A stretch of 64,000 nt of DNA from Sphingorhabdus sp. Its GTDB lineage: Bacteria; Pseudomonadota; Alphaproteobacteria; Sphingomonadales; Sphingomonadaceae. Made by a program: the position numbers and the translations under genes. A model generated the notes under the pieces. That model was not told where the DNA came from and searched no databases. It saw only the letters and a list, made by a program, of their open reading frames with translations. The stretch is taken from assembly GCF_044239045.1 (NCBI RefSeq), contig NZ_JBIICD010000008.1, positions 8,311 to 72,310 on the forward strand, written 5' to 3'. Shown one piece after another: positions 3,026 through 61,639 of this stretch (position 1 is its first letter; every line of letters begins with the position of its first letter).

Positions 3026-4080
3026 AGACCGAAACCCTCCGGCTGCGGCCAACCTTGGGCATAAGCGGCCAATGTCTTGAATAAGGCCCCCATGGCGTCA
3101 GGCTCTACCAGCCGTTGACGCGCCGCGTTTATGTCTGCAGCTCTGTCGGGGTTGGACGCAGCCAAATGTTGCGCACGCTGCTCAATGCCCAGACCCAAAA
3201 GCCATGCACCTTGGTCACTTGGTCCAGCCGTCAAAAGACCACTATTTTTCGCGCAGGTCGCCAATTCAAAAAAGTCGACATGCGCCGTCAAATCCAGCTG
3301 TCCCGGATTGGTAAACGGGTCGGCATAATTGTGGCTCTGGACCGCTTGTAACGTGTTGCCCAACGCAGGCTGTGTATAGCCATAGTCGATGACCAACATC
3401 ACCCCGCCCTGCTTTACCAGCCGTGCCGAAAGCTGCTGCATGATCGACGATGCATCAGGACAGATTTCATAAATACTGCCCATGGCGGCCGTGCGAAAAT
3501 GTGCGGGAATGAGGTCATCAGCCGAGGACGCGCCGGGCACAGCCGCAAAACCCGATTCACTATCCCGCACAACGACCCGTTCCCGCCAGCCAGATTGTGT
3601 CGCAACCATCTGTCGAACCGGTAAGGCGTCGAAAAACTCGTTTGCCACAATGCACAAAGGCGCATCGGTCGGAAGACTATCCAGATTGTCATGGAATGTC
3701 GCGTCTGGCACTGCCTGCAACTGCTTGGCGCGTAATGCCGGGCTGTTTTCCACGAAATGGACCGATGGTTCCCATCCAAAACGCTTCATTGTTCTGAGCG
3801 CGTCTGCTGCCAAAGTTCCCCGGCCAGGGCCAAGCTCCACATAATGGCAAGTGGCCGGACGATGGCGTAACCAGATATCGCTCAACCAAATGCCCACCAT
3901 CTCGCCAAACATCTGGCTGATTTCTGGCGCAGTGATGAAATCACCTTCTGCGCCCAGCGGGTCAGCGCGACCATAATATGCGGTGTTGGCCACACGCATA
4001 TATTCGGCAACGCTGATGGGTCCTGATGCCTCTATCTGCTGCGCTAGACGGACTGCAACTTGCGCGCTGTCAGGTGACAC
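3022..4080 (-). CDS. SAM-dependent methyltransferase, MidA/NDUFAF7 family
   Basis: DFITAPEISQMFGE, ELGPGRG, ANEFFDALP, DLTAHVDF motifs; GTG start at 4080 overlaps the lgt end (track start 4149 looks too long). Confidence 0.9.
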   Translation of the reverse strand: MSPDSAQVAVRLAQQIEASGPISVAEYMRVANTAYYGRADPLGAEGDFITAPEISQMFGEMVGIWLSDIWLRHRPATCHYVELGPGRGTLAADALRTMKRFGWEPSVHFVENSPALRAKQLQAVPDATFHDNLDSLPTDAPLCIVANEFFDALPVRQMVATQSGWRERVVVRDSESGFAAVPGASSADDLIPAHFRTAAMGSIYEICPDASSIMQQLSARLVKQGGVMLVIDYGYTQPALGNTLQAVQSHNYADPFTNPGQLDLTAHVDFFELATCAKNSGLLTAGPSDQGAWLLGLGIEQRAQHLAASNPDRAADINAARQRLVEPDAMGALFKTLAAYAQGWPQPEGFGL

Positions 4081-4936: not shown

Positions 4937-5011
4937 AATATTTCCTCAGGATCTTTTGACATTCCTATAGAGCCAAATAGAAGTCGCACAAAGAGTTTAG
5001 GAGAGAATCAC

Positions 5012-6709
5012 ATGCCGTCGCAGTTGGACCTTGCAATCGATGCCACCATTAACCGGCTCATGGCCGATGATGGACCCTTAGCCGTTACCTATGCCGAGAA
5101 AAACGGTGTTCAAATGCCCGTTTTCGCCAAAGCACCGGGTAACATGGCCGACTATTTCGCATTTTTCTGTGCGACCCATGCGGACAAGGAATTTTTGGTC
5201 GATGGCGATATCCGCTTAAGTTTCGCAGAAACCTATGGTGCGGCGCGCGCTTTGGCTGGTGGTCTTGTAGAAGGCTACAAGCTGCAAAAGGGTGAGCGCG
5301 TCGGCATTGCGGCGCGTAATTCCGCCAATTGGATCGTTGCCTATATGGCGATTGTGATGGCCGGCGGCGTTGCAACGTTGCTCAATGGCTGGTGGCAAGG
5401 TGGAGAATTGGCAGAAGGCATTCGCATGGTTGGCTGCCGCTTTGTTCTCGCCGATGAACAGCGTGCCGCGCGGATGGCTGGACAAGATATTGGTGGGTGT
5501 GAACTGCTCATCATCAACCATGATTCCAAACCCTTGGATGGCTTATCGGTGATGACCGCTAAGGGTGGCGGCGCGGCGACAGCGCTGCCAACCATCGATC
5601 CACTCGATAACGCGACGATTTTATACACCTCTGGATCAACCGGACAGTCGAAGGGTGCGGTGTCAGACCATCGCGCTGTCGTCCAAGGCGCAATGAGCTA
5701 TGTCGGTCAAACGCTTGTCTTTTTTGAGCTTATGTCCGCCAGTGGCCAGTCGATGCCGGCCCAGCCTTCAGCGCTCGTCAATGTGCCCTTGTTCCACGTT
5801 ACTGCGTCGATACCTTTGGTGCTGCAAAGCTTCGCCATTGGCCGCAAGCTCGTTTTGATGCCCAAATGGGACGCAGAAGAAGCGATGCGGATTATCGAAA
5901 AAGAACGCATCACATATTTCGTGGGCGTTCCGTTGATGAGCATTGAGCTTGCAACGCACCCGGCCCGACACAAATATGATTTAACAAGCTGCACCGCATT
6001 TGCCGCCGGCGGCGCGCCACGCCCTGTCGAGCATGTCAAAAAAATCCGCAAGGAAATGAGCTGGGGTTATCCATTATTGGGCTACGGCCTTACTGAAACC
6101 AACGGCGTTGGCTGCGGCAATTTCACCGACAATTATCTAGAAAAGCCAACCAGCACGGGCCCTGCGACCAAGCCACTTGTCGAGGTCCAAATGCTGGACG
6201 ATGATGGCAATGTATTGCCGCAGGGTGAACGCGGCGAAGTGGGCATTCGGACGATTGCCAATTTCAATGGCTATTGGAATAACGAAGATGCCACGCGTGA
6301 TGCCTTCACCGCCGATGGATTTTTCCGGACCGGCGACATCGGCTATCTCGACGAAGATGGCTATTTGTTTATCGTCGATCGAAAGAAAGATATCATCATC
6401 CGGGGCGGCGAGAATATCAGTTGCCCAGAGGTCGAAGCTGCGGCCTATGAACATGACTCGATAGTCGAATTGTCTGTCTTTGGTATCGCTGATGACAAAT
6501 ATGGTGAGGTTCCGGGCATTGTCTATCAGACAAAGGAAGGCGTCACGCTAACCGCGGATGAATTGAAAGCGTTTTTGGCACCCCGTCTTGCACCATACAA
6601 AATTCCTGTACATTTCTGGCAAGTGGCCGAACCACTTCCCCGTCTGGGGACACAGAAAATCGACCGGGTGACGCTGCGACGCGAATATAATGCCAAGATA
6701 TCTGCTTAA
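5012..6709 (+). CDS. Long-chain fatty acyl-CoA synthetase (class I adenylate-forming enzyme)
   Basis: YTSGSTGQSKG P-loop, GYGLTE, FRTGDIG, terminal GTQK. Confidence 0.9.
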   Translation: MPSQLDLAIDATINRLMADDGPLAVTYAEKNGVQMPVFAKAPGNMADYFAFFCATHADKEFLVDGDIRLSFAETYGAARALAGGLVEGYKLQKGERVGIAARNSANWIVAYMAIVMAGGVATLLNGWWQGGELAEGIRMVGCRFVLADEQRAARMAGQDIGGCELLIINHDSKPLDGLSVMTAKGGGAATALPTIDPLDNATILYTSGSTGQSKGAVSDHRAVVQGAMSYVGQTLVFFELMSASGQSMPAQPSALVNVPLFHVTASIPLVLQSFAIGRKLVLMPKWDAEEAMRIIEKERITYFVGVPLMSIELATHPARHKYDLTSCTAFAAGGAPRPVEHVKKIRKEMSWGYPLLGYGLTETNGVGCGNFTDNYLEKPTSTGPATKPLVEVQMLDDDGNVLPQGERGEVGIRTIANFNGYWNNEDATRDAFTADGFFRTGDIGYLDEDGYLFIVDRKKDIIIRGGENISCPEVEAAAYEHDSIVELSVFGIADDKYGEVPGIVYQTKEGVTLTADELKAFLAPRLAPYKIPVHFWQVAEPLPRLGTQKIDRVTLRREYNAKISA

Positions 6710-21834: not shown

Positions 21835-23184
21835 ATGGCCATTGAAAAAATCCTTATCGCCAACCGTGGCGAAATTGCGCTGCGCATTCACCGTGCCGCG
21901 CATGAAATGGGGATCAAGACGGTTGCCGTCCATTCGACCGCTGATGCCGATGCCATGCATGTGCGGTTAGCAGATGAGGCAATTTGCATCGGGCCGCCCT
22001 CTGCGACCGACAGCTATTTGAACATTCCGGCAATTATTTCCGCCGCAGAAATCAGCCATGCCGATGCAATCCACCCTGGCTATGGTTTCTTGTCGGAAAA
22101 CGCGCAATTTGCCGAAATCGTCGAAAGCCACAATATTACATGGATTGGCCCAAAGCCCGAGCATATCCGTACGATGGGCGACAAGGTCGAGGCCAAGCGG
22201 ACCGCAGGCGCATTGGGCCTGCCGCTCGTCCCCGGCTCCGACGGCGCGATTGAGGATGTCAATGAAGCCAAAGCGATAGCGCGCGAAATTGGCTATCCTG
22301 TGATCATCAAGGCCGCCTCCGGTGGCGGTGGACGCGGCATGAAGGTCGTCAACAGCGAAGAAGAGCTGGAGACGCAAATGCAGCAAGCAGGGTCCGAAGC
22401 GAAAGCCGCCTTTGGCGACGCGACGGTCTATCTGGAAAAATATCTCGGCAACCCGCGCCATATCGAATTTCAAATTTTCGGCGATGGCAATGGCAACGCC
22501 GTCCACCTTGGCGAGCGCGACTGTTCATTGCAGCGGCGGCACCAAAAGGTATTGGAAGAAGCACCATCCCCTATATTGGCGACGGCCGAGCGGGATCGCA
22601 TGGGCAATATCTGCGCCAAGGCGATGGCCGATATGGGCTATCGCGGGGCGGGCACCATTGAGTTCCTTTGGGAAAATGGTGAATTCTATTTCATCGAAAT
22701 GAACACACGGTTACAGGTCGAACATCCGGTCACCGAAATGATTACGGGCATCGACCTTGTCCGCGAACAGATCCGAGTGGCAGAGGGCAAGCCGCTTTCG
22801 TTCAAGCAAGAGGATGTGACCTTCACCGGCCATGCTGTGGAATGCCGGATCAATGCCGAAGATCCGCGCACCTTCATGCCCTCACCTGGCACCGTAAGCT
22901 GGTATCACCCGCCCGGCGGCTTGTATGTCCGCGTCGATAGCGGGCTCTATCATGGCTATAAAGTCCCGCCATATTATGACAGCATGATCGCCAAGTTGAT
23001 CGTCTATGGTCAGACACGCGAAGGCTGCCTGATGCGCTTACGCCGTGCGCTCGGCGAATTTGTGATTGAGGGCATGAAGACCACTATTCCGTTGCATCAA
23101 CGGCTGTTGGAAGAGCCCGATTTCCAGAACGGCAATTACACCATTAAATGGCTTGAAGAATGGCTGGCGAAGGACGCGGAATAA
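21835..23184 (+). CDS. accC: Acetyl-CoA carboxylase biotin carboxylase
   Basis: [46 protein letters not shown]. Confidence 0.98.
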
Positions 23185-23873
23185 CCCTCTCCCGCCGTGC
23201 GGCTGCCCTTGGGCTGGCGGCCCTGCCGCTGGTTAGTTGCGCGCCTATGGGGCCCGACCGTGATGTGTTGTTTATTCCCGCGGACAAGGCCGCCGCGCTT
23301 AAGCCCGATGACCCCAAAAGATTATTGGAACTGATAAAGCTCGACCCCGCGATCCAGCTCGATATGCGTTATGCGACCACCAATAATTTTACCGGCCAAA
23401 TATTGTATGACGAAGCCCGCGCCTTTTTGGCGGCCCCGGCGGCTTTGGCGGTTGCGCGCGCCAGCAAGGCGGCTTTAGCCGATGGCTTTGGCCTGACAAT
23501 TTACGATGCCTATCGCCCTTGGCGCATTACTAAAAAGCTATGGGACGCAACGCCAGTTGGCCCGAAAAAAGAATATGTCGCCAACCCCAAGCGCGGGTCA
23601 AAACATAATCGTGGCTGCGCCGTCGATCTAACCTTGCATGATTTGCAAACCGGGCAGCTTGTCGAAATGCCGACCGAGTTTGATGATTTTTCGGAAAAAG
23701 CGCACCGCGATTATATGGGTGCGTCTGCGGCGGCCATTGCCAACCGTGCGCGGCTAGCACGTTATTTGGAAGCAGAAGGTTTCGTCGGCCTGTCCAACGA
23801 ATGGTGGCATTTTGATTTTACCGGGTGGGAGCAGTTCCCGGTTATGGATAATCCATTTAACAAGATCGCTTAA
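23160..23873 (+). CDS. ddpX: D-Ala-D-Ala dipeptidase (M15/VanX family), predicted lipoprotein
   Basis: [31 protein letters not shown]; RR motif and lipobox LVSC; start uncertain (23160 ATG or 23181 ATA). Confidence 0.85.
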
Positions 23874-58849: not shown

Positions 58850-59173
58850 ATGGCAAAGCTAAGCAACGGCACTATTTCGGTTATTTTTGTGGCACAGCGC
58901 ACGGAACTGGACGCCGACGGTTACGCTAGGGCTGCCGCGATGATGGATGAGCTCGCCGCGCATCAAGATGGCTATATTGGCATAGATTCGGTGCGTGGCG
59001 CAGATGGACTTGGCATCACCGTCAGCTATTGGGCAGACGAAGCACGCGCAAAAGCGTGGCGCGATCATCCTGATCACGCCGCAATGCGCGAGGCGGGCCG
59101 GAACCGATGGTATTCAGATTACAGCCTGCATGTGGCGCAAGTGACCCGCAGTTATGATTGGAAGAAGCCATGA
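58850..59173 (+). CDS. ABM-family monooxygenase
   Basis: GYIGIDSVRG.DGLGITVSYW......AW..H..H..R..GR..WY. Confidence 0.85.
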   Translation: MAKLSNGTISVIFVAQRTELDADGYARAAAMMDELAAHQDGYIGIDSVRGADGLGITVSYWADEARAKAWRDHPDHAAMREAGRNRWYSDYSLHVAQVTRSYDWKKP

Positions 59174-60474
59174 GCGCGGTTCAAACAATTCCCAGTAGCC
59201 GTGTTGTCGTGCTATTCCTCGTGATGCTCGTTGCCGCGGCGGGCAATACCGCAATGCAGTCGGCCCTTCCCGCGATCGCCAGTGAATTGGATATGCCCGA
59301 CGTATGGGTCAGTCTGGCCTTTAGCTGGTCTGCGTTATTATGGGTTATTACTGCACCCAAATGGGCACGCCTGTCGGATCGCCGAGGCCGCAAGCAACTG
59401 ATGAGCGTTGGCGTGATCGGCTTTGCTGCGTCCATGGGCTTGTGCGGATTGGTGCTCTGGCTTGGACTGGCGGGCCTCATTGGCCCCGTTGTGACGTTTA
59501 TCCTGTTTGCATTATTCCGCAGCCTTTACGGCGGTTTTGGCTCGGCTGCCCCACCCGCCGTTCAGGCCTATGTCGCGGCCCGAACCGAACGCGCCGAGCG
59601 CACCAAGGCGCTATCAATGCTTGCATCCTCTTTTGGCGTTGGCACCGTGATTGGCCCTGCAACCGCGCATTATTTCCTGTTTCCGCCGTTTGGCTTGGCC
59701 GGGCCACTCATCATGTTTGCCGCCTTTGGGGTGGCTGTATTGATTGCGTTACATGTTCAATTACCCAATGACACCCCGCGGTTTGAGGCGCGCGGCGCCG
59801 TTGCAGCTTACCCAAATTCAGCTTCCGTGAATTCGCCGGATGCTGAAGAAGTTGATGGTGATGCGTTGGGATCAGTGTTGCCTAGCAGCGAGGTCCGTCT
59901 GCCATGGCGTGATGAACGCATGGCATCCTGGCTGATTGCAGGTCTGATCGGTGGCCATGCGCAGGCAATCATTTTGGGCGTGGTGGGTTTTCTCGTGCGT
60001 GACCGGTTGGGATTGCATGATCGTCCTTGGGAGGCGGTGCAAGCCAGCGGCTCGGTTATGCTCATTGGCGCAATGGCGACCTTGTTAGCTCAGTGGGGCC
60101 TCATCCCGATGCTCTCACTTGCTGCGAGAAGTTCCGTCCTCTTGGGCGCGATTCTCGCCTTACTGGGCACAATCTTGACAGGCGTCAGCCATGATTTTTA
60201 TGGTATTAGCACGGGCTTTGCCATTGCCTCGCTCGGCTTTGGGCTGTTCCGACCGGGCTTTACCGCAGGCGCATCCTTGGCGGTCCATCGGCATGAACAA
60301 GGGGACGTTGCGGGCAAAATCGCCTCGATCAGCGGCGCGGCCTATATTGTCGCGCCGGCGGTTGGTGTTGCGTTGTTCAATTACTGGGAACCCGCCACAT
60401 TCATTCTGATCTCGGTATCGCTGCTATTCCTGATCATTTGGGGACGGCGCGCTTTGATAGTACCTGAAATCTAA
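59170..60474 (+). CDS. MFS transporter (TetA/DHA1-like)
   Basis: About 12 TMs, WARLSDRRGRK motif A; ATGA overlap with the upstream gene. Confidence 0.9.
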   Translation: MSAVQTIPSSRVVVLFLVMLVAAAGNTAMQSALPAIASELDMPDVWVSLAFSWSALLWVITAPKWARLSDRRGRKQLMSVGVIGFAASMGLCGLVLWLGLAGLIGPVVTFILFALFRSLYGGFGSAAPPAVQAYVAARTERAERTKALSMLASSFGVGTVIGPATAHYFLFPPFGLAGPLIMFAAFGVAVLIALHVQLPNDTPRFEARGAVAAYPNSASVNSPDAEEVDGDALGSVLPSSEVRLPWRDERMASWLIAGLIGGHAQAIILGVVGFLVRDRLGLHDRPWEAVQASGSVMLIGAMATLLAQWGLIPMLSLAARSSVLLGAILALLGTILTGVSHDFYGISTGFAIASLGFGLFRPGFTAGASLAVHRHEQGDVAGKIASISGAAYIVAPAVGVALFNYWEPATFILISVSLLFLIIWGRRALIVPEI

Positions 60475-60537
60475 GGTCCGGAACCACCGACGGCTGTCAT
60501 CATTCCTAGCAAGATAACGGTGATACGGAATTTGGAT

Positions 60538-60600
60538 AAAAAAAGGGCCGACCGAAGCCGACCCTGAAAAAGTCTTTAGGAGAGGATGCCTATAAGGCTT
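60538..60600 (-). ncRNA. Candidate small regulatory RNA with an anti-SD CCUCUCC seed (possibly SuhB/MmgR-like)
   Basis: GCCU-UAU-AGGC hairpin, AUCCUCUCCUAAAGACUU, GGGUCGGC-UUCG-GUCGGCCC-U7 terminator; upstream TTGCAC-N17-CATATG. Confidence 0.7.
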
Positions 60601-60604
60601 TACC

Positions 60605-60683
60605 CATATGGTTGGGTTTCATTTTTTGTGCAAGTGCGAACAGTGCAATAGCTGTTGCAAATGATGCAACTATTAATTATAAG
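60605..60683. promoter_or_regulatory. Divergent sRNA/LysR promoter region with a palindromic LysR site
   Basis: Minus: -35 at 60628-33, -10 at 60605-10; plus: TTGCAA(60655)-N17-TATAAG(60678); TTGCA-AATGA-TGCAA (T-N11-A) at 60655-60669. Confidence 0.6.
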
Positions 60684-60763
60684 TTTAAGCTGAATTTCGC
60701 GACATTTATACGATTGCGAGATCAAAATATTTTTGTTGCAGTGCGGCAAAATTAGGAGATGAT

Positions 60764-61639
60764 ATGCGCAGATTGCCCCCCTTACGCTCACTGGAAGCCT
60801 TTTTACGCGTCGCTAAACTGGGTTCGGCAAAAGCGGCCGCGAGTGAACTCGCTTTATCTCCACCTGCACTAAGCCGTCGTATCAAGGCGCTGGAAGACTT
60901 CATCGGTAAATCCCTGTTTGACCGCCGCGCACAAGCGATGGTCATTAATGCGGATGGCGAGGCACTTCTCGCGGCCGTTGAACCCGCAATGGACGCAATG
61001 GCTGAGGCGGTTGACGAACTCGCTGGACGTGGCGGGGAATATCGCCTGCGTCTGGGTCTTTTGCCGCTTTTTGGCTCGCAAAGGCTTATTCCGCGCTTAC
61101 CTGAACTACGTAAGGCGTTTCCAAAGCTACATATCGATGTGGACACATCTGGTCATGCCGAAAATCTGCTGGGTGATGTCGTCGACGCGGCCATCATCAT
61201 CTCAGCAGACGTCGACCCCAAGCTTTACAGTGTCCGGTTAGACCGCAACCTTGTTTACGCCATCGCCTCTGAAAAATGGGCGAATGAGCATAATGTCGAA
61301 AAGCCTGAGGACCTCGCAAAGCATACCGTCATGGTTCACAGTGACATGCCTATGATATTTGACGCATGGCGACAGGCCATGGGGGTCCCCCGCCTGAAGC
61401 CGGCTGCGATCGACAGCCTGGATAGTGGCGCATTAATGTTGGAGGCGGCTGCAAATGGTCTTGGCGTTGCGATCATGCACGGAAGCCACTTTTCTGACGC
61501 GCGCGACCCGCGCCTGACACGTCTTTTCAATACAGAAGTAGAAAGCCCATATAGCTATTACTTCGTGTGTCGCCCACGTGCGCTGAAGCAGCGAGCCGTA
61601 AAAATCTTTCATGACTGGTTGTTGAAGTCAGGCGTATAA
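60764..61639 (+). CDS. LysR-family regulator, GcvA-like
   Basis: MRRLPPLRSLEAFLRVAKLGSAKAAASELALSPPALSRRIKALE HTH; substrate-binding domain ending FHDWL. Confidence 0.92.
   Translation: MRRLPPLRSLEAFLRVAKLGSAKAAASELALSPPALSRRIKALEDFIGKSLFDRRAQAMVINADGEALLAAVEPAMDAMAEAVDELAGRGGEYRLRLGLLPLFGSQRLIPRLPELRKAFPKLHIDVDTSGHAENLLGDVVDAAIIISADVDPKLYSVRLDRNLVYAIASEKWANEHNVEKPEDLAKHTVMVHSDMPMIFDAWRQAMGVPRLKPAAIDSLDSGALMLEAAANGLGVAIMHGSHFSDARDPRLTRLFNTEVESPYSYYFVCRPRALKQRAVKIFHDWLLKSGV

Follow-up and report, generated by a model that had tools for sequence, protein, structure and literature searches.

A probable SuhB/MmgR-family small RNA gene lies divergent from a GcvA-like LysR regulator in Sphingorhabdus

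The 64-kb stretch of Sphingorhabdus DNA analysed here (the window) very probably encodes, just upstream of a lysR gene, the Sphingorhabdus orthologue of the trans-acting small RNA (sRNA) SuhB/MmgR (alpha-r8; Rfam family RF00519). The predicted gene lies on the minus strand at 60538..60599, where both the RF00519 match and a covariance model of our own place it, and would give rise to an RNA of ~61–62 nt. It occupies a 289-nt spacer bounded on one side by the convergent gene for an MFS transporter (59158–60474, plus strand) and on the other by a plus-strand gene for a 291-aa, GcvA-like LysR-family regulator (60764..61639), which is divergent from the sRNA gene and probably encodes its activator. 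A first-pass annotation of the same DNA had described a promoter, a 5′ mini-hairpin, an anti-Shine-Dalgarno (anti-SD) seed and a UUCG-capped terminator with U7 on the minus strand of this spacer; all were found in place, and its remark that the core recalls SuhB/MmgR is borne out by a full-length match to RF00519 and by orthologues that exceed the family cut-off. Its reading of the element as an anti-SD sRNA with a terminator typical of Hfq binders agrees with membership of RF00519 and with SuhB of Sphingopyxis granuli TFA (hereafter TFA), an experimentally validated, Hfq-dependent translational repressor that pairs with the SD region in the thnR 5′ UTR. This homologue, studied in Garcia-Romero et al. 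(2018) and in bioRxiv 10.64898/2025.12.09.693200 and described as a homologue of Sinorhizobium meliloti MmgR, is a 61-nt RNA by Northern blot and dRNA-seq.

The 5′ hairpin of the predicted RNA (hairpin 1, GCCU-UAU-AGGC, GCCUUAUAGGC; minus strand, 60588..60598) matches hairpin 1 of the Rfam consensus and is followed by a single-stranded linker, AUCCUCUCCUAAAGACUUUUUCA (60565..60587), that contains the anti-SD seed and a U-rich stretch 5′ of the terminator. The region of the seed, UCCUCUCCU (60578–60586, with AAAGACUUUUUC directly 3′ of it), aligns with the CUCCCU.AGACUU core of RF00519 in the Rfam alignment. The Rho-independent terminator (60538..60564) consists of an 8-bp stem, GGGUCGGC/GUCGGCCC, and UUCG loop at 60564–60545 and a U7 tract at 60544–60538; the terminator scan called it on the minus strand only, with 9 pairs (6 G-C), a loop of 4 and a T-run. 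The 5′ end was placed at 60599/60598 from the spacing to the −10 element and the onset of conservation, and the 3′ end at the end of the U-tract. The promoter-to-hairpin spacing likewise puts the start site at ~60599/60598 and hence yields a 61–62-nt RNA, in agreement with the length of TFA SuhB.

A gap of 64 nt separates the MFS stop codon, whose last base is 60474, from the U-tract end, and the two genes are convergent, close to the 60 bp and the opposed orientation initially proposed. Minus-strand ORFs upstream of the sRNA amount to just a 63-aa ORF over the AT-rich spacer and one antisense to lysR, in keeping with the earlier statement that no minus-strand CDS lies upstream. Folding of the single sequence gives a modest z of −2.75 relative to shuffles. 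Chance is excluded mainly by the comparative evidence, which we regard as decisive: the Rfam match, the occurrence of just one copy in the window, and a shared position in 78 of 80 related genomes. DNA nearly identical to the window comes mainly from lake-water metagenomes; the source is a freshwater Sphingorhabdus, a sphingomonad rather than a rhizobium.

In E-value mode, a 361-nt search matched RF00519 (suhB, ‘Makes More Granules Regulator RNA’) on the minus strand at 60605–60530 with 37.4 bits (E = 2.5e-6), and the alignment spans the whole model (1–77 of 77); the runner-up Rfam family for the spacer reached E = 0.12. The gathering score of RF00519 is 41 bits, and Rfam at gathering thresholds gave no match over the whole 64-kb window; the sRNA is thus unannotated because it scores just under the cut-off. 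An Rfam search had been suggested in the first-pass annotation, which had foreseen that a match of this kind would remove the novelty of the RNA, as it does. RNAs at the same position in related genomes pass the cut-off (L078, 55.6 bits, and L076, 49.4 bits, both Novosphingopyxis; L067, 49.0; L080, 47.7; L060, 45.4; L064, 44.9; L063, 44.3 and L066, 42.0 bits), as do Sphingopyxis-type suhB copies at 48–51 bits. That orthologues pass indicates that the shortfall of the window copy reflects seed sequences of the model, or a threshold, tuned on other lineages, rather than a different RNA. The RF00519 architecture is present in the window: a short 5′ hairpin leads into an unpaired, C/U-rich anti-SD motif with AGACUU after it, and the RNA closes with a Rho-independent terminator and its U-tract. 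The gathering score therefore misses the suhB of a whole abundant freshwater clade (Sphingorhabdus) while sister-genus orthologues pass, and adding Sphingorhabdus-clade sequences to the RF00519 seed alignment would repair the missed annotation.

The sub-threshold score and the empty default search could also be expected of a new sRNA family that has come to resemble SuhB/MmgR by convergence on a short C/U-rich seed and a terminator, and short sRNAs with anti-SD seeds are common in alphaproteobacteria. We consider such convergence extremely improbable. The window copy belongs to a continuous series of orthologues at one genomic position, several of them above the RF00519 threshold; its hairpin, seed, promoter block and LysR box are held in common with suhB of TFA, an experimentally characterized member, and with Sphingopyxis genes annotated or studied as SuhB; and our model, built from the Sphingorhabdus clade, gives the Sphingopyxis suhB genes 75–80 bits. 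Orthology with SuhB is the reading adopted below.

For comparative analysis, 80 loci were fetched from species-representative genomes via the LysR protein, whose identity to that of the window ranges from 100% (an uncultured Sphingomonadales MAG) and 99% (Sphingorhabdus wooponensis) to 60% (a Sphingobium-labelled MAG). The cultured species Sphingorhabdus wooponensis, S. rigui, S. contaminans and S. profundilacus (L002, L033, L055 and L056) all have the sRNA element. The core motif is found with at most three substitutions on the strand opposite lysR in 75 of these loci, and with a 1-nt deletion in three more. A covariance model (R1) built from 74 distinct sequences detects a single copy in the 64-kb window, at 100.3 bits, and gives scores of 54–103 bits for 78 of the 80 loci, with contig ends cutting into three of the 78; L073 carries a degenerate copy (24 bits), and with this model L070 has no copy upstream of lysR. 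In all 74 sequences the anti-SD core GGCAUCCUCUCC is invariant, as is the C/U-rich single-stranded stretch AUCCUCUCCUAAAGACUU between the 5′ hairpin and the terminator, while the 10 nt 5′ of hairpin 1 and the sequence past the U-tract vary freely. Seed conservation upstream of the LysR orthologue, a check put forward in the first-pass annotation, is therefore complete. Metatranscriptome contigs from relatives that are 90–95% alike show the same pattern, with 0 differences in the pieces over 60528–60601 and many in the diverging flanks. The sRNA unit is, to judge from these alignments, under strong purifying selection.

The secondary structure was assessed on a model-guided alignment, since MAFFT misplaced the divergent terminators and thereby masked covariation. 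Overall, 99.4% of cells are paired, versus 19–53% in slid controls. The terminator is paired in 99.5% of cells and five of its eight pairs show compensatory changes on both sides, with a covariation score that 0 of 500 shuffles reached. The 5′ hairpin is paired in 99.3% of cells across the 74 sequences, but three of its four pairs never vary, and this near-invariance leaves no covariation for or against the hairpin. An alternative single-sequence fold that pairs the 3′ half of the seed is less probable; its helices are 94.9% and 82.8% paired, as compared with 99.3%, which is only moderately worse, and relatives preserve it less well than they do the family structure.

Linkage of lysR and the sRNA holds in 78 of the 80 genomes (the degenerate copy adds one) and in 11 further loci, obtained by looking up eight CDC48 homologues. 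The latter include Rhizorhapis suberifaciens, a Blastomonas MAG and a locus with a Parasphingorhabdus-like LysR; their LysR proteins are 54–66% identical to that of the window, the LysR gene encodes 292–300 aa (293–301 codons including the stop) in each of them, and the sRNA, the promoter block TTCGCACTTGCAC and a TTGCA-N5-TGCAA-like box are present in all 11. Thirty of the 80 loci have the gene order lysR, sRNA, CDC48, MFS, among them loci from genomes with a LysR 97–98% identical to that of the window. The sRNA is kept whatever gene comes next, be it a CDC48 ATPase (the 30 loci), a convergent MFS gene (the window type) or unrelated genes (Sphingopyxis).

This synteny bears on whether the element might act in cis on the gene for the CDC48-family AAA ATPase, as a 5′ leader or attenuator that persists in the window as a leftover after gene loss. 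Of the 80 loci, 30 do have CDC48 directly downstream on the same strand, as do most of the more distant ones, and the mRNA of SGRAN_2042, the TFA CDC48 gene, is in the TFA CopraRNA target list. We nevertheless judge a leader function very unlikely, for a strong terminator with U7–U9 stands 100–450 nt from the CDC48 start codon, conservation is perfect in many genomes without CDC48 at the locus, and the Sphingopyxis copy, at an unrelated locus, regulates thnR, phbB and a TonB-dependent receptor in trans. The window type appears to have lost the CDC48 gene and kept the sRNA, which argues against the RNA being a mere leader.

The core promoter (minus strand, 60605..60640) comprises the invariant block TTCGCACTTGCAC (60640–60628), which includes the −35 element TTGCAC (60633–60628), a variable 17-nt spacer and a weak −10 element, CATATG (60610–60605). 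Across 97 loci this block is conserved to at least 90%, at a constant 29–30 nt from hairpin 1. A sigma-70 consensus scan of the region missed the promoter, as CATATG is without the final T of the consensus; the core promoter is thus weak by consensus. The TTCGCACTTGCAC block may double as an activation site of the LysR protein. Further upstream is a LysR-type box, TTGCATCATTTGCAA (T-N11-A; minus strand, 60655..60669), in the same register as ATTGCAAAAAATGCAAC in the TFA probe, and an extra ATTGCAC (60649–60643) lies between the box and the block. Of 98 loci, 83 have an exact TTGCA-N5-TGCAA; it is unique within each locus apart from L067, which has a second match distant from the sRNA, and a box occupies the homologous position wherever examined. 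The window holds two exact matches, compared with 0.3 expected; the second (23634–23648) is inside a coding region and was dismissed. When anchored on the −35 block, the window and TFA-type promoters align gap-free through TTGCA-N5-TGCAA, ~19 nt, TTCGCA-N-TTGCAC, 29–30 nt and the hairpin; the window thus has the operator validated in TFA, equally far from its core promoter.

Autoregulation through boxes upstream of their own genes is usual among LysR-type regulators, L070 retains the box and lacks the sRNA, and the hairpin lies 64–71 nt past the MFS stop codon. These observations would fit a locus with no separate RNA gene, in which the hairpin is a (perhaps bidirectional) MFS terminator and the upstream motifs serve lysR autoregulation only. 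We give this arrangement almost no credence. Read on the plus strand, the stem runs into TGAAAAAGTCTTT, which has no T-run, and only the minus strand gives a terminator call; conservation is highest in the 35 nt upstream of the hairpin, which are superfluous for a terminator; the sequence is kept without an adjacent MFS gene in CDC48-type and Sphingopyxis-type contexts; and the RNA family model is matched over its full length.

Two questions arise for regulation by the neighbouring gene: (i) what kind of LysR protein it encodes and (ii) whether that protein corresponds to the SuhB activator in TFA. For the first, GcvA (NCBIfam NF008352) is the best of 41 LysR-family matches, with 183.2 bits, but the cut-off of 288 is unmet; the initial description of a divergent, GcvA-like LysR thus stands as to placement and best match, and the profile scores make the protein GcvA-like rather than GcvA. 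For the second, the LysR-type protein SGRAN_2041 was pulled down on the TFA suhB promoter, shifts a wild-type box probe (AGCCCCGGCAGAACGATTGCAAAAAATGCAACAATAAATGCTCTTTTCGC) in EMSA with an almost undetectable shift when the site is mutated from TTGCA to CACA, and supports PsuhB::lacZ activity, which is lowered by its deletion (bioRxiv 10.64898/2025.12.09.693200). SGRAN_2041 has 292 aa and adjoins SGRAN_2042, which encodes a CDC48-family AAA ATPase (bioRxiv 10.64898/2025.12.09.693200). It is probably the positional orthologue of the window LysR, on the basis of CDC48 synteny, length and the primer-encoded peptides MQRLPP and VKLFHD. Note that the TFA LysR was not found in protein searches with the window and Novosphingopyxis LysR proteins, where only nearer genera were among the matches listed, and that Sphingopyxis was not named among the matches of the CDC48-neighbour protein search.

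Taken with the conserved operator and linkage, this orthology via CDC48 suggests that the divergent GcvA-like protein would bind the TTGCA-N5-TGCAA box, ~60 nt upstream of the start, and activate the sRNA promoter. Conserved linkage and operator lend independent comparative support to the step from LysR to SuhB, which has so far come from one preprint and one strain, and present it as a family-wide module rather than a peculiarity of TFA.

The sequence of TFA SuhB is 5′-CACACUUGCCUUUUAGGCAUCCUCUCCCAAAAAC, with the seed at positions 20–27 (primers and IntaRNA tables of bioRxiv 10.64898/2025.12.09.693200). We reconstructed the TFA suhB locus from the published primers and near-identical metagenome loci, of which an exact search of metagenome contigs with the TFA-type core gave 18 of Sphingopyxis type. 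In one of these, L083, the suhB_for primer is matched exactly and few positions differ from the probe; the ‘CACAC’ 5′ end of the TFA constructs is the boundary of the Rfam match. SGRAN_0364, the top CopraRNA ‘target’, is a perfect 51-nt antisense match, from which we deduce that TFA suhB lies ~150 nt upstream of SGRAN_0364 and divergent from it. On the SGRAN_0364-type side, L083 has a small membrane-protein gene and ribD, and no LysR gene is found within ~2.3 kb on the ribD side or 6.4 kb on the other. The antisense match and the gene content of L083 together indicate that the TFA activator gene is not beside suhB. The divergent lysR–suhB pair would then be ancestral in Sphingomonadaceae, and Sphingopyxis a derived case in which suhB probably moved and the operator was kept.

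A palindrome of PhaR type, CGCACTGCA (YGCRNYGCR; minus strand, 60737..60745), lies 19–27 nt upstream of the lysR ATG. YGCRNYGCR was defined as the motif of PhaR/AniA in S. meliloti, where this protein binds the mmgR promoter. In Sphingorhabdus-type loci, including the window, the palindrome stands at a fixed −104 to −108 relative to the −35 block, and the motif is upstream of that block in 79 of 108 loci scanned; in all Sphingopyxis-type loci and in L080, L102, L106, L107 and L109 its place is within the core promoter of suhB, at +22/23 relative to the −35 block. By our own arithmetic, a motif this degenerate is expected ~0.07 times per strand in a spacer of such size, and the evidence consists in the fixed position and in substitutions that preserve the motif (CGCACTGCA, TGCGCTGCA, CGCAGTGCA, TGCAACGCA and others).

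In TFA, suhB is induced by beta-hydroxybutyrate, by sebacate and in fast growth, and PHB granules promote its transcription. A presumed site for a PhaR-type repressor in the lysR leader might tie the module to PHB/carbon status, a link more tentative than that to LysR. If so, PHB/carbon status would reach the sRNA directly or through a cascade from PhaR via LysR to SuhB. The fixed palindrome suggests a testable route from carbon-storage status to an sRNA in bacteria that are dominant in many lakes. The combined proposal, that the lysR–suhB pair is ancestral and family-wide, that TFA is derived and that the PhaR-type operator shifted between the suhB core promoter and the lysR leader, is a tentative one that we think somewhat doubtful in its entirety.

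Our working model for the locus is a minus-strand transcription unit of ~62 nt with its own promoter and Rho-independent terminator. By analogy with TFA SuhB and S. meliloti MmgR, the RNA would bind Hfq via the U-rich stretch and the poly-U tail, and, as in the homologues, its C/U-rich seed would pair with the SD regions of several mRNAs and block their translation. SuhB/MmgR homologues tune carbon and PHB metabolism, envelope proteins and stress tolerance. For TFA SuhB, the December 2025 preprint reports stress and PHB phenotypes and, as direct targets, phbB and a TonB-dependent receptor (bioRxiv 10.64898/2025.12.09.693200).

Several SDs in the window had been put forward as complementary to the seed, and the example given, AGGAGAG at 4999–5005, does lie 7 nt before the ATG (5012) of a gene for an AMP-binding acyl-CoA ligase. 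Among the 151 start regions of the window, that of this gene also forms the best duplex, at −18.7 kcal/mol with 10 contiguous and 4 additional pairs. However, 22% of composition-matched shuffled seeds match that energy somewhere in the window, and the mean of the top 10 duplex energies over the 151 start regions equals the shuffled mean. Since any C/U-rich sequence is expected to be complementary to purine-rich ribosome-binding sites, no target in the window is supported, and the acyl-CoA ligase duplex was rejected as target evidence.

In public RNA data the region is covered by freshwater metatranscriptome contigs that are unstranded and kilobases long, break within the conserved core and may include DNA. 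From runs with an isolate-RNA label, a 221-nt stretch drew no match, and the 70-nt core drew only unstranded contigs that extend into the promoter; X44, a mixed run of great depth, resembles a DNA population graph. The TFA homologue and the conservation of the unit suggest that the sRNA is expressed.

Beyond the literature consulted, the additions made here are modest: an sRNA missed by Rfam across a clade, family-wide conservation of the lysR–suhB linkage and operator, and alternative positions of a PhaR-type site. The picture of how SuhB-class sRNAs work is unchanged.

In gcvA–gcvB of Enterobacteria and vtlR/lsrB–abcR of Rhizobiales, an sRNA gene is divergent from the LysR-type gene whose product activates it. 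The parallel with gcvA–gcvB drawn in the first-pass annotation is apt, as the sRNA is divergent from lysR with a T-N11-A box located between the two genes. The likeness to gcvB and abcR is one of gene arrangement and regulatory logic only, the RNAs belonging to unrelated families with other seeds (G/U-rich in GcvB) and other targets. S. meliloti MmgR is closer. Like the window sRNA it is a member of RF00519 and has the same three elements in order, namely a 5′ hairpin, the unpaired C/U-rich anti-SD motif with its AGACUU, and a U-tract terminator; it is Hfq-dependent and limits PHB accumulation. It differs in its length of 77 nt, its seed (UUUCCUCCCU) and its genomic context, and it is activated by NtrC and repressed by AniA, with no LysR regulator reported for it.

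The comparison with TFA SuhB reveals both differences and close identity. In TFA, suhB is unlinked from its LysR activator and divergent from SGRAN_0364, whereas in the window the sRNA and lysR are divergent neighbours; the PhaR-type palindrome is between the −35 element and the start site in TFA-type loci but in the lysR leader in the window; the linker after the seed is CCCAAAAAC in TFA and CCUAAAGAC in the window; and the thn target is specific to strain TFA. At the same time, the two RNAs have the same architecture, a length of ~61 nt and the same seed, AUCCUCUCC; the IntaRNA predictions published for TFA SuhB use UCCUCUCC as its seed. Their first hairpins are almost the same (GCCUUUUAGGC in TFA, GCCUUAUAGGC in the window), and both genes share the promoter block TTCGCA-N-TTGCAC and, at equal distance from it, the TTGCA-N5-TGCAA box.

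The gap between the sRNA, a SuhB/MmgR-family (RF00519) RNA encoded on the minus strand, and the MFS gene is variable among relatives of the window. In 30 of the 80 related genomes fetched through the LysR protein, the two are separated by a 2.3-kb gene for a CDC48-family AAA ATPase. Carriers include loci L004, L010, L011, L014, L015, L021, L029, L037 and L040, compared with positions 60475–60537 of the window; the window itself lacks the gene at this gap, as do many other genomes whose LysR is >95% identical. The CDC48 gene is thus a presence/absence polymorphism, and the sRNA stays intact. We also note that in a Novosphingopyxis genome (L078) a palindromic unit of ~40 nt, GGGCACCCAACAAAGTACTACTTTGTTGGGACCCGGAAA, is repeated in tandem, with three copies or more. 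The array lies at ~3.5–3.7 kb, past the sRNA in minus-strand orientation and before the CDC48 gene is reached.

The RNA has been lost in two relatives, L073 and L070. The former has only a degenerate copy (3815–3895, minus strand; 24 bits) between lysR and the CDC48 gene, with AUCUCCGCUUC as its seed. A covariance model search found no copy at the L070 locus, and this genome keeps the LysR box, matching TTGCA-N5-TGCAA exactly, at 3916–3930, a short way upstream of the lysR start. The window holds a second exact match to this box (23634–23648, plus strand), which lies within a 237-aa ORF at 23160–23873 and is probably a chance occurrence.

In the public sequencing run X44, whose type is unstated, the conserved sRNA core (60538–60601) is covered at a summed depth of ~4000. 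Several strain-specific flanks are attached to this core, and one contig contains Illumina adapter. Such a pattern looks less like RNA than like a mixed population of Sphingorhabdus sequenced deeply.

One candidate target, suggested by base complementarity and suited to conservation analysis, is an AMP-binding acyl-CoA ligase gene (ATG at 5012). In its leader (4990–5011, plus strand), complementarity to the sRNA linker extends past the Shine–Dalgarno core, with AAAG..UUUAGGAGAG facing CUCUCCUAAAGACUUU in the linker; tested within the window alone, this complementarity showed no significance.

A motif scan of loci L001–L109 located a PhaR-type palindrome, YGCRNYGCR, at 60737–60745 of the window (minus strand, 60745..60737). 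The motif is kept despite substitutions. Its offset is constant in Sphingorhabdus-type loci, where it lies within the lysR leader; in loci of the Sphingopyxis type, as in several further lineages, it is found in the suhB core promoter. The Sphingopyxis-type suhB (metagenome loci L081–L098, for example L083:6355–6436) is distant from any LysR gene and divergent from a gene for a 155-aa membrane protein adjoining ribD. In Sphingopyxis granuli TFA, where SuhB has been characterised, this membrane-protein neighbour, SGRAN_0364, is the top 'target' in the published CopraRNA table (bioRxiv 10.64898/2025.12.09.693200), a rank it owes solely to the upstream region extracted for it, which runs antisense across suhB.
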